From Candidatus Cloacimonadota bacterium (GTDB taxonomy: Bacteria; Cloacimonadota; Cloacimonadia; JGIOTU-2): a stretch of 64,000 nucleotides of DNA. Every line of letters begins with the position of its first letter. Positions within the stretch are counted from its first letter, which is position 1. Below are positions 51,801 to 63,800 of the stretch, piece by piece. Position numbers: made by a program. The stretch covers positions 62,330 through 126,329 of the forward strand of contig JBNGBT010000008.1 of the NCBI GenBank assembly GCA_049903315.1. Reading direction: 5' to 3'.

Positions 51801-54800
51801 CGTAATCATATTAAGATACACAGGATCATGGAATCCCTTCAAAAAGCCGAGTATATGGCAGGTATCGGAGAACTTGGCAGAGAGGTTGCTCACGAAATCA
51901 AAAACCCGCTCAATGCGATTTCAATGATACTTCAGAGAATCCGGGCAGAGTTTGTTCCCGAAAAAGACAGCGAGTTGAAAAAATGGCTTTCCGTATCGTT
52001 TGATGAAATAGAACGCCTCAACGGCATTGTAGAAAGATTCCTTGATTATTCGCGCTCGATCACATTGAAAATTAAGAAAGTTAATGTCGGTGATTTTATT
52101 GGGAAAATTGCTGATATTTTTCAACAGGAATATAAGGATACTAATCTGCAAATCCAGGTGGATGGCAATAAAAGCATTGTCTGGAATTTTGATATTGATG
52201 CACTCACTCAGGTTATGATAAATGTTATAAAGAATTCTGTCGAATCATTTTCACCCGAACAAGAACACAGGAACATCCGCATAGAATATTTTGAGAAAGA
52301 CAAAGAAATGACAATCAAGATCGTTGATAACGGCAGCGGGATTTCCGTAGATAAACTCAATAAAGTATGGGATCTATATTTCAGCACAAAAGAGAGCGGA
52401 AACGGATTGGGATTGCCTATTTCCAAGAAAATAATAAAAGCCCATCAGGGGGATGTATTTATCAAGAGCAGTTCAAAAAATGGAACTGAGATAATAATAA
52501 AGCTGCCAAAATCGGAGTTAGAGTGAAAATATTAATTATTGAAGACGACGCATCTCAAAGAGAGATATTAGCAGATTTTCTCAAGTCCCAAAAACACGAG
52601 ATCTTCACCGCTTCAAATGGTGAAGAAGGAATAAAAATATTTTATAAACACCCAGTTGATGTGGTGATATCTGATTATCGAATGCCGGGACTGAGTGGAA
52701 AAGAGGTTCTGGAAAAGATATTAAAGATAAATCCATTCACGGCAGTCATTATCATCACTGCATACAGCTCGGTAGATAATGCTGTCGAGTTGCTCAAACT
52801 TGGCGCGTTTGATTATATTGAAAAACCGATCAATCTCGAATTGCTCTTGAGTAAAATAAAAAATGCACAGAATTACATACAGGTTGAGAAGGAAAGTAAA
52901 AAGGTTCAAGATATTATTATCGACGAAGAACTTCCAGTCACTTTTATTGGAGACAGCCCAAAGATAAATGAAATCCTCAGCATTGTAAAAAGAGTCGCAC
53001 ATGTGGACGCTTCAGTCCTCATCTCCGGAGAAAGCGGAACCGGGAAAGAGGTCATAGCAGATATAATTCACCACCTCAGCCCCAGGAAAAAATATAAAAT
53101 GATAAAAGTAAACTGCTCAGCAATACCCGAAACACTTCTCGAGAGTGAGCTTTTCGGGCACGTGAAAGGGGCTTTTACAGGTTCGATACGCGACAGAAAA
53201 GGGCGTTTTGAAGAAGCGAATGGAGGTACACTTTTTCTCGATGAGATCGGGGATATTGCTCCGTCAATACAGGTAAAACTTCTCCGGACGCTTCAAACAA
53301 TGGAGTTTGAACCCGTGGGGAGCTCGATGACCAAAAAAGTGAATGTGCGCATTATTGCTGCATCAAATAAGAACATTCAAACAGAAGTGCAGTTAGGACA
53401 TTTTCGGGAAGATCTGTATTACAGGCTGAATGTCATACCAATTCATCTTCCCCCATTGCGTGAAAGAAAACAGGATATAAAAAAGCTGGTGGAACATTTT
53501 TTGAGCATATATTCCGCTGATGAAGACATAACTTTTTCCCACGATGCCCTTATGAAGCTGGTGAATTATCCCTGGGAAGGGAATATCAGGCAGCTGAAAA
53601 ATGTGATACAGAGAACGATCGCCCTAGCCAGAAATAACATAATCCAGATCGAAGAGCTTCCTGAGGAGATACGAGAATATCATCTTTTCAACAATGAAGA
53701 AAACGCAAAAACAATTGCCGATGTTGAACGAACTCACATCACGAAAATATTAAAAGAATGCGAATTCAACCAGGTGAAGGCAGCGGAGATGCTTGGGATT
53801 CATCGTAATACGTTATCAAGAAAAATCAAAGAATATAATATTGATATTCCAAAATAAATATTGTCATGGATAAGTTAAGAGTAAGAAGAATACTACAACT
53901 GGTTTCGCTTGGAATATCAGTGTCTTTATTTGTTCTACTAATCGAAGGTACACTTCCTGTTGCGCATGAGTTCTGCCCCTATGCATCGGTGTGTTTCGGT
54001 GTATGGAAAATTGGAGCAAAATTCGCACCGTTTATTTTTCCAGTAGCAATAGTAATTGGTGCTGCGATTGCACTCAGCACACTATTTCTCGGAAGATGGT
54101 TTTGTGGATATATTTGTCCCATTGGAACGATTCAGGAGCTTGTATTCTCAACAAGGAAATCCAAGAAAAAATTTGTGCAATTAATCCCTTACAAAGTCCA
54201 TAAACATTTGAATATTGTTAAATATGTTGTATTTTTTTTCACCGCAATAACTGCGTTTCTCGCAGCTCAATTTATCTACATGAAATTCTGCCCAATTCTT
54301 GCAATCGCTCATATTCAAAATATTACTATTGTTGGAATTCTTGTGCTTGCGATAATTCTATTTGCAGGTTTTTTTATCGAAAGATTCTGGTGCAGATACC
54401 TATGTCCTTATGCAGCGCTTATGAATATCATCCAGAAAATTGCCGATATGATAGGCATTAAAAGATATAAAATATTCCGGAACATTCACACCAGTATTAA
54501 CTGTTTTAATTGCCTGAATTACTGCCCGATGAACATTGACATCGGGTATAATGAAAAAATTTCTGACATTAATTGTATTAAGTGTTTGAGTTGCGTGCGC
54601 CGATGCTCAAAAACTGATAAAGAAAAAAGTAAATGTATTTATAGAGATTGAGGAAAAAAAATGAAAAAAATATATTTGATGATACTTATTGTTTTGCTTG
54701 CTGTTCCCCAGATAGTATTTGCGCAGGACACGACCAAAGTGTATAAGGTTGATAAATCAAAATGTATCGGCTGTACTATTTGCGTAAAAGATGGAAAATG

Positions 54801-60800: not shown

Positions 60801-63800
60801 GATGCGATCCATTAAGTATTATGAAGAAATATTTCTTTTTTATCATATTATTACTCAACGCCAATATACTTTTGGGTGAGGGGCAGCTTTCTTATGAAGC
60901 TTCCTATGATGAAAATGAAGGTATCAGCCACAGGTTCGCATCGTATGTGACATCTCTTACGCAGAAGTGGCTCATCGAGAACATAACATACAGCTCCCTG
61001 CACAGTGAAGATGATAAAAAGAAGAATAAAGATGATGCACAATATTATCTTTTAAACTATATCAGAAATAAGGTTATAGCCACTCATTTTTCAGATTCTT
61101 ACCTTATTTCAGCATATCTTTCTGGGGAATATGATTTTGGAAGAAATATCAAAACTAATATTGCTGGTTTGCCGTATCAGTACACACTTGAAAACGGACT
61201 GACAACTGGATTGAGAGCAAATTACAAATTCTCAAACTTCGAAACAGATATGCGTCTGGACTATGACACGAAAAATTACAATTATGTAACACTCGACAGT
61301 AAAGAAGGACATCATACCGAAGCAAATCTACAAGGAAAGATCAAAACATCATTGTCATTATCAAAATCACTGAAAGCATACATCGAAGCTTATCATTACA
61401 ATGATTTGAATGAAAGCAGCAAGTTCGATTTTACCCGGTTCTATGCAGGATTATCTTTTGATAAGAAACTCAATTATATCCATTACCTCAGTATCGATGC
61501 CGCAGGTGGATATTCTGATATTGATTCTCTATTTCCCTATACATTTCGAACTGAAGCACGGGTGACAAGCAAGTTCATTCATGAGTGGATCGCAGTTGCA
61601 AAATTAAGCTACAATATCTGGACAAATAATGATATAGATGGAATATATTTTGGCAATACTTACGCAGAATTTCTTACTCAAAAGAATATTTCATTCACGC
61701 CAAATAATGAAGTGAGTAAATTCCAGATGTCTGCATCGCACTATTATCTGAGCAATCAAACTCTCTTGAAGACCAAGCTGGAATTCTATATAAATAAACT
61801 TATGTTATCATTATCGTACGGACGATACATCGGCAGGAATTTGCCATATGATAATAAGTTCATCGGCAAGATCGCATATCCGATTTTTCAAAATGTTTGC
61901 CTGTCCTATAGCTATCACTATCAGGACAATGTGGTAATTCCGGGAGTAAATGCTCATTCCTGCGGGATTGATGTGCTTTTTTAAATCATGCTGAAAACGC
62001 TTGCAGAAGGATTCATGCTTGGATTGGCCACAGGTTCTGTGTGTCTTGTGACATGCACTCCGATCTATCTTCCTTATCTCTTATCTGAAGAACGTAAGCT
62101 AGCAAAAAGCTTGGGCATAGTCGCAGAAATTTCTGCTGGCAGGTTTTTTTCATATATCGCTTTTGGAGCAATTGCCGGATATGTCGGTGCAAATATTTCT
62201 AATATCAACAGAACACTTTTCACATCTATCGCATATATTTTACTCTCAATTTATCTTGTACTTTCTGCAGTGAGGGCAAGGCAACATGATAAAAAATGCC
62301 ATGTTTCAAAAATTGCAAGAATAACCAAAAGCGCATTTATTCTCGGCATTCTTACGGGCATAAATTTCTGTCCTGCATTTCTGATCGCACTTTCCAAGGC
62401 AGTAAATCTTGGGGGAGTAGTAAGTGGAATGATGCTTTTCCTCGGATTTTTTGGAGGTACCACCCTCTATCTTATTCCGATAGCATTTCTCGGGCAGCTT
62501 TCACGGATTCAGATAATGAAAAAGATAGGGCAAATCGCTTCACTGATCATTGCAGCATGGTTTATCTTCAGTGGAATTAGAGGGTTAGCCACTCTCAAAA
62601 AGCAGCGCAGTCACGTAGAGGTTCAGCTTGAAGAAAATGAAAGATTGGTAGATGTCTTTGCGCCTGATCAACAGATTTTGATCATATCCTCGGATGAAAA
62701 TGCCACATATTTTTCCGCATTGAGAGATTCCTTTACTGCCTGGAATATGCACGAGATTATTTATTTGCAGAATAATTCAGAATATGTGGACTCGCTCATG
62801 AAATATGAAAAGGGCATTGTCTTTTGTGACAATGAAATTGAATGCGAAAATCTTCGGTCCATCCTTCATAATTTTGATGTGTTTTATATTGAGAAAAACT
62901 ATCCGATAAGCCGGATACTCACATTCCTCAATAAGTTTACCTTCAAAACAGAGACAACTCTCCAGTGGGAGTTCAAAGAGCAGTAATTACAGATACTGCA
63001 TCATTTCTTTATCTTTCACCTGACCGTAAAGCTCGATATAGGGCTTTACCGGGCTTGAGATAATCTTCGGAAAAAGAACTTCTTCGATCTGGAAGAAACC
63101 AGCGGATTGTGACATTTCTATTAAAATTTTAATAGGTTTTTTATCTCCCCGGATTATGTTCACTTTCTGGATAGAGCTTGCAGAATACTTATGAATATCC
63201 CCTACTCGTGGCTGTTGAGAGAGTAGGGTGGTGATGCGGGAACGCCCCTTTTCCATATCGCACCCATCGCCGATAAGTACGAGTCCTGCTTCAAGGGAAT
63301 AAATTTTTTCTGTAGCCATGTGTCCGAAAATGCCTTCGATGATCATTGCTTTCAGAATAGTTTTTTTCGGGATATTGTCTTTATAGATCGCATCGAGCAT
63401 CCGCCGAATAATCGGTTCTGCAAAAATAATTCCGATGATCTCATGATGGTCGCGGGTTGCAGTCATGCCGACGTCATGAAGAAGAGATGCTGCCAGAACG
63501 CATACTTTACTGTCCTGATATGAGCCCATGTGTTCTGATTCAAGATTGAACTTTATGCCTGCATTATGCAGGAGGTCAAACATGATGAGAGCATTCAGAG
63601 CTGCAGTTCTCATATGAACCGGTCCATGGTCATTATATCCAAGGCGCTTAATAGAAACAGTATTTGCAAAATCCTGAAGAGTCAGCACCTCTACATCATT
63701 AAAAATAAAGTTTGCTATCTCAGTAGATTTCCCCTCAAGATGGGTCAAGATCGATTTCTCAAGCGCTATTTGCTTACGTGTTTTCTTAATCATAATAAGT

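Follow-up and report, generated by a model that had tools for sequence, protein, structure and literature searches.

How electrons could leave a cell that has neither cytochromes nor Tat export is the question raised by a row of genes in the window, the 64,000-nucleotide stretch analysed here (contig JBNGBT010000008.1, positions 62,330 to 126,329, of a Candidatus Cloacimonadota bacterium). Cloacimonadota, which abound in digesters and anoxic waters, have been proposed to use direct interspecies electron transfer (DIET), with no conduit named (PMC8892533), and our literature search found no published description of such a ferredoxin-barrel system. The row encodes secreted or lipid-anchored ferredoxin-type proteins beside a predicted outer-membrane barrel, and may constitute a haem-free electron exit path. 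An earlier note had read it as a route by which electrons reach the cell surface without haem. This is still the leading reading, and the genes, motifs, conservation and absence of Tat behind it stand, whereas cluster binding, barrel insertion, electron flow, its direction and its acceptor are what we infer.

The gene row and its conserved core

All open reading frames of the row were found on the + strand, at the same coordinates as before (Table 1). The Pfam matches quoted earlier (Fer4_5 twice, Fer4_7/Fer4_10, fn3 and DsbD_2, with HisKA/HATPase_c and Sigma54_activat for the kinase/regulator pair) were also recovered. The earlier gene list was incomplete, as two 81-aa genes of the 2x[4Fe-4S] type with export signals, fdA and fdB, had been overlooked between the 1720-aa gene and the barrel gene. 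These two are the most conserved part of the row. Both lie directly upstream of the barrel in 69 of 71 barrel loci, and again in 19 of 20 further loci taken mostly from genomes without a DsbD_2 orthologue. Each carries the two CxxCxxCxxxC(P) motifs of a 2x[4Fe-4S] ferredoxin, with eight ligand cysteines at the canonical 2-2-3 spacing in all 50 fdA and all 46 fdB homologues. Spacing, the proline after the fourth Cys and a hydrophobic core are kept in 96/96 core sequences of 35-58% identity, and the closest PDB matches are [4Fe-4S] polyferredoxins. Judged by gene order and sequence, the conserved unit is fdA-fdB-barrel. Over 65 loci, barrel identity correlates with that of fdB at r 0.81 and with that of fdA at 0.64, figures that are confounded by kinship and carry no evidential weight.

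Table 1. Features of the gene row, in window positions
Feature	Position	Strand	Remarks
Candidate sigma54-type -24/-12 site, 1 mismatch	48965..48979	+	Intergenic, just 5' of ATG at 49022
Sensor histidine kinase, AtoS/ZraS-like, below equivalog cut-offs	50868..52526	+	Profile matches
Sigma54-dependent response regulator	52523..53857	+	Profile matches; row linkage in this genus only
NapH-like inner-membrane Fe-S protein, 261 aa, 4 hydrophobic segments	53866..54651	+	Accessory
Signal-peptide polyferredoxin, 168 aa, 4 Fer4 motifs	54661..55167	+	Accessory
1720-aa lipoprotein (Cys24), Fer4 - 14 fn3 - Fer4	55160..60322	+	
N-terminal, membrane-proximal dicluster domain of 1720-aa protein	55292..55429	+	Cys45-Cys90
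14 fn3 repeats, residues 98-1659 of 1720-aa protein	55451..60136	+	~112 aa each
C-terminal (tip) dicluster domain of 1720-aa protein	60164..60283	+	Cys1669-Cys1708
fdA, 81-aa ferredoxin with Sec-type signal peptide	60323..60568	+	Core gene
fdB, 81-aa lipoprotein ferredoxin, lipobox Cys21	60570..60815	+	Core gene
Outer-membrane beta-barrel (predicted), 387 aa, 20 strands, without plug	60821..61984	+	Core gene
DsbD_2-family membrane protein with soluble C-terminal domain	61988..62986	+	Accessory

The barrel gene is present in 112 of the 232 genomes of the phylum. Its count of 4 in the 23 genomes of the order was reproduced, and in the wider survey the barrel is not rare. The predicted structure (pLDDT 92) has 20 strands over 368 mature residues and no plug domain. 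The protein matches no Pfam or NCBIfam family, fold searches returned generic barrels only, and the Atlas matches are barrels of no assigned name with a recognition value below the Atlas threshold. MtrB aligns with it at Z 14.7 (rmsd 6.2, 329 residues), within the Z 12-17 reached by many unrelated barrels. A quick tree groups the barrel sequences mostly by family, and a scan of contigs with one protein as query returned 2 loci, both of the same genus. In indirect checks, all named organisms among the matches and Atlas entries were Cloacimonadota; no genome-level search covered other phyla. A strict [ST]GA[ST] motif, the ApbE flavinylation motif as defined in PMC8238504, is found in the first loop of 7/14 subtype-B barrels, always at the same site, and in 0/23 subtype-A barrels; these 37 sequences have it nowhere else. 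It is absent from the barrel of the window. ApbE is present in 215/232 genomes of the phylum.

On the same sequence comparisons, the genes for the 1720-aa, NapH-like and DsbD_2 proteins count as accessory. The conserved chain proposed earlier does not hold, as the napH-like gene accompanies 16 of 40 loci of the 1720-aa family and a DsbD_2 gene follows 43 of 71 barrels. Nor is the 1720-aa protein a core component, with homologues in 54/232 genomes vs 112/232 for the barrel. The NapH-like protein has two Fer4_5 matches and scores 63.4 bits against TIGR02163, far below the cut-off of 213.05. The 168-aa polyferredoxin occurs in 22/40 of the loci with the 1720-aa family, its first domain often swapped for a Cys-free domain. 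The DsbD_2 protein has four invariant cysteines (19, 23, 104, 128), scores above the PF13386 cut-off and has no PDB relative by sequence. There is no thioredoxin gene in the row of the window, and the genome encodes, apart from the row, a true DsbD whose partner is TlpA-like. Many genomes have the triad without an adjoining inner-membrane partner, and genera g11 and g16 have barrels in 13/21 and 8/23 genomes with 0 DsbD_2 orthologues. A check for a quinone pool gave one UbiA-family match, whose neighbours resemble what we take to be archaeal-type lipid synthesis genes.

Surface variants and export without Tat

The 1720-aa protein is strongly acidic (267 D+E vs 59 K+R). The lipoprotein-like signal and the dicluster domain at each end, both described earlier, are present: Cys24 ends the hydrophobic N-terminus and each domain has 8 Cys ligands. 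The fn3 repeats, previously counted as about 19, number 14, spaced at 105-115 aa and 22-68% identical among themselves, and homologues have 4-12 repeats where intact. The N-terminal domain shows CxxCxxC-x5-C twice, with a 5-residue last gap, and keeps its 8 Cys in 38/40 homologues. The tip domain has canonical spacing in 16/35 and an off-pattern last Cys pair in 19/35, and its closest match is a T9SS-tagged ferredoxin of other families. In the AlphaFold model of a 580-aa four-repeat homologue (pTM 0.46), the fn3 domains are good and the N-terminal domain falls below pLDDT 50; a fold search with this model returned fn3 arrays only. A metagenome scan found the module in 13/79 loci, the others sharing the fn3 repeat alone. 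Because the two terminal domains lie 4 to 14 repeats apart across the family, the protein is read as an optional surface extension and not as the wire. An extended 14-repeat stalk would presumably measure ~50 nm on the repeat length that we assume, far past tunnelling range. Within this genus, 5 other genomes have lost the surface part or carry it in broken form, so that it must be dispensable to them.

Where the large protein is missing, a tip-type domain returns in the slot before fdA, fused to a T9SS sorting tail. PF18962 is above cut-off in 5/6 of these tails and TIGR04183 in 2/2, and the tip-domain profile scores best in 9/9 of the ferredoxin domains. No inspected locus has both forms. 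The variant combines a signal peptide with a type A C-terminal sorting domain, as T9SS cargo does, and the 1720-aa protein does not. SprA and PorV were found in the genome of the window, and the T9SS-tailed variant belongs to other families. The Bacteroidetes-type surface lipoprotein signal (PMC5080379) consists, behind the Cys, of a polar residue and then at least two acidic ones. At least 90% of the large proteins retain Asp at +3, and the 1720-aa protein shows a single acidic residue; the signal is not established for Cloacimonadota.

The absence of TatC and TatA was confirmed (0 matches at E<=1 in a 96.4% complete genome), and the control searches were positive in 12/14 and 13/14 genomes. 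Across the phylum TatC is found in 8/232 genomes and in 2/112 of those with the barrel, and in none of the 8 single-contig genomes with a barrel. A loose RRx pattern appears in 4/134 N-termini and is not conserved. A lipobox Cys follows the n- and h-regions in 39/39 homologues of the 1720-aa protein and 45/45 of fdB, and the genome encodes Lgt; the large protein of the window has an unusual His at -1. The n-region is positive in 49/49 (fdA), 40/45 (fdB) and 38/39 (large protein) sequences, compared with 0 for the RnfB anchor. Together with the T9SS variant and the lack of TatC in 110/112 barrel genomes, these features make the Tat-independent export of ferredoxin-type domains, as claimed earlier, well supported at the level of sequence. 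The lack of cytochromes claimed earlier also holds for c-type machinery: at 96.4% completeness, neither Cytochrom_C_asm nor any ORF carrying two CxxCH motifs turned up.

PMC10924467 reports that Fe-S proteins receive their clusters while still in the cytoplasm, which makes export by Tat obligatory. The only NifU gene of the genome has no signal peptide. A radical SAM enzyme, which requires a cluster, carries a signal peptide of the same sort as the row proteins in 28/29 orthologues. The row as a maturation system of this enzyme was considered and rejected, since its close orthologues occur in the barrel-less, near-complete genomes G217, G219 and G227 and are missing from many barrel genomes.

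A candidate haem-free conduit and its relation to known systems

We give about an even chance to the reading that the row is a haem-free porin-ferredoxin conduit. It is supported by the triad in 69/71 loci, the canonical cysteines, the lipobox and the absence of TatC, and also by the T9SS-tailed domain in the slot before fdA, the flavin motif of the barrel subtype, the missing c-type cytochrome machinery and the DIET proposed for the phylum. In such a conduit, fdA, fdB and the large protein would pass unfolded through the inner membrane via Sec, the latter two being lipidated, and would gain their 2x[4Fe-4S] clusters after leaving the cytoplasm. With fdA in the periplasm and fdB on its lipid anchor, both would bind within or against the plugless barrel of 20 strands and ferry electrons of low potential over the outer membrane, most likely outward, in disposal of fermentation electrons. 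On the inner side the path would be lengthened by optional parts, namely the proteins of the NapH-like and DsbD_2 types and the 168-aa polyferredoxin; the DsbD_2 protein would probably keep exported cysteines reduced or supply metal. The membrane-proximal domain of the large protein would be the first surface acceptor, and the tip domain, on its variable-length stalk, could touch a mineral, a particle of sulfur or a partner cell. Electrons would get to it through a bend of the molecule or by hops from one molecule to the next, not along the stalk. Reported cytoplasmic cluster insertion, a sole NifU without a signal peptide and drifting tip Cys spacing speak against the conduit, as do the triads that have no inner-membrane partner beside them, the missing flavin motif in the barrel of the window, the length of an extended stalk and the dispensable surface part.

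Shewanella MtrCAB (PDB 6r2q) and Geobacter OmaB/OmbB/OmcB provide the subunit roles for comparison. The porin-cytochrome conduits share with the row a periplasmic redox protein, a barrel and a lipoprotein redox protein in fixed order, as well as a plugless barrel and an optional larger surface module. PMC7399161 defines them by redox genes next to a gene for an outer-membrane barrel with at least 14 strands, a range that takes in the 20 strands predicted here. In contrast, the row has CxxCxxCxxxCP in place of CxxCH, no haem or multihaem c-type cytochrome and no cytochrome c maturation gene, and its barrel, with 20 strands and 368 mature residues, has no family match and resembles MtrB no more closely than it does other barrels. 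Tat-exported Fe-S proteins such as HybA, HmcB and hydrogenase small subunits (PMC10924467) also place ferredoxin-type domains of electron chains outside the cytoplasm, but the row uses Sec, lipoprotein and T9SS-type signals without a conserved twin-arginine motif or TatC/TatA. The ApbE-flavinylated NapH-like and DsbD/DUF3570 systems (PMC8238504) share the NapH-like PF12801, a Cys-based membrane shuttle and, in one barrel subtype, a flavinylation motif on an exported protein. They differ in that here apbE lies on another contig, the shuttle is PF13386 and not PF02683, and the carriers are ferredoxins. The row of the window contains neither apbE nor DUF3570, DUF4266, a thioredoxin or an FMN-binding domain or gene, and the substrate motif is missing from it too. 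NapGH (TIGR02163) likewise pairs a NapH-like membrane protein with an exported polyferredoxin, but the partner here is not of Tat type, the row has no terminal reductase and the family cut-off is not reached.

If the conduit reading is true, the rule that extracytoplasmic Fe-S proteins are loaded in the cytoplasm and travel via Tat (PMC10924467) would fall or need an exception, and so would the rule that outer-membrane conduits are multihaem cytochromes. For the DIET proposed despite the lack of cytochromes (PMC8892533), the row gives three small expressible genes. A bolder extension, which we regard as doubtful, is that Cloacimonadota mature Sec-exported Fe-S proteins extracytoplasmically and possess a cytochrome-free wire. 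It would run from an inner-membrane Fe-S protein over periplasmic ferredoxins and a ferredoxin pair inside the private barrel to a surface ferredoxin, which an fn3 stalk raises by as much as ~50 nm or T9SS releases, and would exchange electrons directly with methanogens, sulfur or iron-sulfide minerals. Should the conduit reading fail, a phylum nearly free of Tat would still have conserved ferredoxins with lipoprotein and T9SS signals, which imply a maturation or export route not yet known.

Alternative explanations and regulation

Iron or FeS uptake, with exported apo-ferredoxins capturing Fe(II) or aqueous FeS units or reducing Fe(III) at the surface, and the barrel and then the DsbD_2 protein moving the metal inward, is unlikely in our judgement. 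It would explain clusters arising outside the cytoplasm, it suits a barrel without a plug and four invariant cysteines rather than one pair in the DsbD_2 protein, and at locus L252 the row is followed by genes that we take, from their sequences, to be Fur-like and FeoB-like. However, this was the single iron-gene neighbourhood among the loci read, Fur boxes are not enriched at 44 operon starts (mean best mismatch 7.57 vs 7.67 in shuffled sequence), the flavinylation motif of a barrel subtype indicates redox, and DsbD_2 is missing from many triad genomes.

The Cys motifs might instead hold no cluster and serve as ligands of Zn, Cu or Hg, or as thiols and disulfides in a cycle fed by DsbD_2, which would make the row an envelope metal buffer or a thiol relay. 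To this we assign a small probability, since ferredoxin spacing, proline and core are intact in 96/96 core sequences, the row lacks a thioredoxin while the true DsbD and its TlpA-like partner are separate, and the radical SAM enzyme with a signal peptide in 28/29 orthologues requires a cluster. The adjoining DsbD_2 gene in 43/71 loci, the ZraS/AtoS-like kinase pair ahead of the row in this genome and the spacing drift in both domains of the large protein fit this alternative, which also agrees with the rule that Fe-S proteins need Tat (PMC10924467).

Slighter still are the prospects of an oxidant sink or an envelope redox sensor or capacitor that protects from O2 or polysulfide with no through-current. 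Such a device requires no continuous wire, tolerates a long stalk and a variable number of ferredoxins, and suits the patchy loss within genera, yet it leaves unaccounted for a private barrel fixed beside exactly two ferredoxins in 69/71 loci and the two different ways in which the tip domain is displayed at the surface. That the hydrophobic N-termini are RnfB-like anchors holding the ferredoxin domains towards the cytoplasm is very improbable: topology was read from sequence and RnfB of the same genome is such a case, but the lipobox Cys is invariant, the positive n-regions are unlike RnfB, and there are fusions to fn3 stalks and T9SS tails and a fixed linkage to the outer-membrane barrel.

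The kinase and sigma54 regulator pair, formerly placed in the chain, was rejected as part of the system, its link to the row being confined to this genus and gone even in the closest relative. Fur, Rex and sigma54 motifs 5' of the 44 operon starts showed no excess over shuffles and no shared palindrome. Within the window, the -24/-12 consensus, as we assume it, gave 7 matches vs 2.9 expected, and the site at 48965..48979 is followed by a + strand gene row spanning 49022-62986.

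The gene row and its conserved unit

The gene row reported for the window is present in this genome (2.96 Mb, 96.4% complete), and its genes are listed together with other features in the table below. Its core had been described incompletely, as the earlier note overlooked two genes for 81-aa ferredoxins, fdA with a signal peptide and fdB with a lipoprotein signal, and the row covers a wider range than was described. The adjoining genes encode the barrel, a 387-aa predicted outer-membrane protein, and the membrane protein DsbD_2.

Coordinates of the row and of other features (L, inspected locus; C, contig of this genome, G000; G165, another Cloacimonadota genome)
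Feature	Position	Strand	Arrangement
Kinase	50868-52526	+	row contiguous
Sigma54 activator	52523-53857	+	row contiguous
NapH-like	53866-54651	+	row contiguous
168-aa polyferredoxin	54661-55167	+	row contiguous
1720-aa large protein	55160-60322	+	row contiguous
fdA	60323-60568	+	row contiguous
fdB	60570-60815	+	row contiguous
Barrel	60821-61984	+	row contiguous
DsbD_2	61988-62986	+	row contiguous
Fe-S assembly set	window 29413-31672
ECF sigma, anti-sigma, 166-aa protein	window 45225-46841	-
Three exported proteins	window 49022-50869	+
AmmeMemoRadiSam radical SAM enzyme and B-A fusion	L201:7386-8465 (G000:C11:35385-36467) and L200:6545-8035
368-aa Fer4 protein	L202:4785-5888 (G000:C3:8781-9887)
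Paralogue of 368-aa protein	C71:32208
Second NapH-like gene	L203:2145-3305 (G000:C1:22144-23307)
True DsbD row	L207:856-6599 (G000:C22)
UbiA-family gene	within G000:C33:214910-217400
Genes behind the row in G165	L252:7210-9931		behind the row, same strand

Among 232 genomes of the phylum, profile matches were obtained for the barrel in 112, for DsbD_2 in 95 (E<=1e-15; partly fragments or copies outside the row) and for the N-terminal part of the large protein in 54. One hundred neighbourhoods were inspected: 40 at the large gene, 40 at DsbD_2 matches and 20 at further barrels, drawn mostly from genomes lacking a DsbD_2 match. Four Fer4 motifs lie within 700 bases upstream of the barrel in 69 of the 71 loci with sufficient upstream DNA (two contig-edge loci excluded), and DsbD_2 follows the barrel in 43/71. 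At the 40 large-gene loci, the NapH-like gene is found in 16 and the 168-aa-type gene in 22. The sigma54 regulator pair reported ahead of the row stands there in the window; elsewhere, as far as the loci are legible, it recurs in only three genomes of the same genus, and in the closest relative, G220, it is not ahead of the row. The conserved unit is therefore fdA-fdB-barrel, to which inner and outer parts are optional additions. Because kin are not independent, these counts show inheritance and not repeated invention.

Three genes for exported proteins of unknown family, two of them Gly/Asn-rich, lie behind a sigma54-type site and stay with the kinase pair within the window's genus. The window also encodes an ECF sigma factor, an anti-sigma factor and a 166-aa exported helical protein. 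DsbD_2 of the genus g26 family carries about 130 additional C-terminal residues.

The barrel and a candidate electron path

The AlphaFold model of the barrel has 20 strands and no plug (pLDDT 92), and no Pfam or NCBIfam family matches the protein. Its fold matches are generic, the best being a SusC barrel (Z 16.8, rmsd 4.7, 348 aligned), and comparison with MtrB gives Z 14.7, rmsd 6.2 and 329 aligned. Against 1.84 billion representatives, the barrel profile yielded 109 matches at E<=0.001; two of ten distant clusters looked up carry organism names, both Cloacimonadota. An ideal 20-strand barrel measures 35-38 Å between backbones (calculated), a width that one ferredoxin domain would fit in cross-section. 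The first loop, which faces outward by the usual topology, holds an insert in subtype B, one of two barrel forms, with a strict [ST]GA[ST] motif in 7/14 sequences and a looser form in 4 more; the strict motif occurs in 0/23 of subtype A, to which the window's barrel belongs, and no other site was found in the 37 sequences. [ST]GA[ST] is the ApbE target motif according to PMC8238504. In fdB of genus g26 (L034, L035, L036, L037), a short Ser/Thr-rich insert behind the lipobox resembles the subtype-B flavinylation motif.

The row mirrors the anatomy of porin-cytochrome conduits, namely a periplasmic carrier, a barrel and a lipoprotein carrier, but uses ferredoxins instead of cytochromes; by this anatomy it appears to work like such a conduit, yet it is outside that family. 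It also fails membership of the Tat substrates, NapGH and the flavinylated systems. We give an even chance to the row serving an electron path across the outer membrane. An outward direction is more likely in a fermenter without terminal reductases. The reported lack of cytochromes was confirmed, with 0 matches to Cytochrom_C_asm and no ORF with two CxxCH motifs in the genome. At some loci the fdA-fdB-barrel triad stands without an adjoining membrane partner that could feed fdA. Uptake of iron or FeS by the row is an unlikely alternative given the lack of a Fur-box excess, although one Fur/FeoB-like neighbour speaks for it: in G165, the genes behind the full row are presumably Fur-like and FeoB-like.

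Search listings of the literature, with few subscription journals and no supplements, showed no account of the row or of Sec-exported ferredoxins. The terms cytochrome, outer membrane, Tat, DsbD and extracellular electron are all absent from the main text of a survey of the phylum (PMC12590816). It is possible that the row's genes are listed in the cluster tables of PMC8238504 or among the annotations tabulated in papers on the phylum. Related work includes PMC7399161, PMC8542988, PMC5080379, bioRxiv 10.1101/2021.10.08.463351, PMC10924467, PMC8892533 and PMC10620991.

Ferredoxin motifs and probable export

Canonical 2-2-3 spacing is kept in both motifs of fdA (50/50) and fdB (46/46), with mean identities of 54-58%, and the best PDB matches of both are [4Fe-4S] polyferredoxins. 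Metal or thiol chemistry without clusters is an improbable role for the proteins, and a service of the row as an oxidant sink is about as improbable.

The N-terminal features support the probable export of fdA, fdB and the large protein. A lipobox Cys is found in 45/45 fdB homologues (the 46th sequence, that of the window, was entered behind its Cys) and in 39/39 large proteins (G220, with a stop near the frame start, excluded). The n-regions are positive in fdA (49/49), fdB (40/45) and the large protein (38/39), with uncharged runs of 16-18 residues, and a loose twin-arginine pattern occurs in 4/134 N-termini. That the hydrophobic N-termini are cytoplasm-facing anchors is scarcely credible; for comparison, the RnfB anchor of this genome has charge 0 and a 24-residue run. 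The absence of TatC and TatA, already noted, holds at 0 matches at E<=1 in this 96.4% complete genome; TatC is found in 8/232 genomes, in 2/54 with the large protein and 2/112 with the barrel, and in none of the eight single-contig genomes carrying the barrel. Lgt, SprA, PorV and ApbE are present.

Two further proteins give independent hints of Tat-less Fe-S protein export in the phylum, as their N-termini suggest: an AmmeMemoRadiSam radical SAM enzyme, scoring over its cut-off, whose N-terminus is hydrophobic, lacks RR and resembles a Sec signal peptide in 28 of the 29 orthologues read (30 loci fetched), and a 368-aa protein that combines two Fer4 motifs with a signal-like start, which we take to be DUF362-like and whose paralogue lacks such a start. 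The AmmeMemoRadiSam B-A fusion also has a signal-like start, in a Tat-less genome, and a second radical SAM copy in G000 has no signal peptide.

The sole NifU gene of the genome has no signal-like start, and SufBD was not found. Clusters might form outside the cytoplasm by assembling themselves on reduced cysteines from Fe(II) and sulfide; another option is an unknown route exporting folded proteins. The only Fe-S assembly set found includes NifU, beside which lie genes presumed to be Rrf2-like and NifS-like.

The large lipoprotein and further redox loci

In the 1720-aa protein, Cys24 closes the hydrophobic stretch, and eight Cys lie at 45-90 and eight at 1669-1708. The fn3 repeats between them, put at about 19 in the earlier note, number 14, of about 112 aa each (residues 98-1659). 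All Cys are kept in the N-domain in 38/40 homologues, with five residues ahead of the fourth Cys, and in the tip domain in 35/35, with only one or two residues ahead of the last Cys in 19/35. Since the repeats of intact homologues number 4 to 12 (36/37 counted; a frameshifted copy has 3) and the extended stalk of the window protein would span about 50 nm (calculated), the large protein cannot be an electron wire. A relay close to the anchor, combined with a tip contact of adjustable reach, is the better reading of this protein. An AlphaFold model of a four-repeat homologue (pTM 0.46) gave an unusable domain arrangement. Many large metagenome proteins that have no ferredoxin domain contain the same type of fn3 repeat (L089-L155).

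Within the window's genus, a stop interrupts the large gene in G220, G213 has just a stub of it, and the large gene, fdA, fdB and barrel are absent or fragmentary in G212, G216 and G221; this loss and breakage counts against an essential role of the system.

In families without the large protein, the slot ahead of fdA is often filled by a 178-185-aa protein with a signal peptide, one dicluster domain and a T9SS type A tail (PF18962 over cut-off in 5/6 scanned; TIGR04183 in 2/2). Its dicluster domain scores best with the tip-domain profile in 9/9 (50-65 bits), against 37-44 bits for three cytoplasmic ferredoxins of this genome, and no inspected locus holds both forms. One domain may thus reach the outside by two routes, as the large-protein tip and as the T9SS-tailed form.

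A separate row encodes a true DsbD, a CxxC lipoprotein, a TlpA-like protein with a TonB C-domain and a 476-aa exported protein without an NCBIfam family. The neighbours of the sole UbiA-family gene look like what we take to be archaeal-type ether-lipid synthesis genes. Downstream of a second NapH-like gene, which has an extra N-terminal domain, lie a pyrophosphatase-like gene and a cluster resembling those of membrane hydrogenases.
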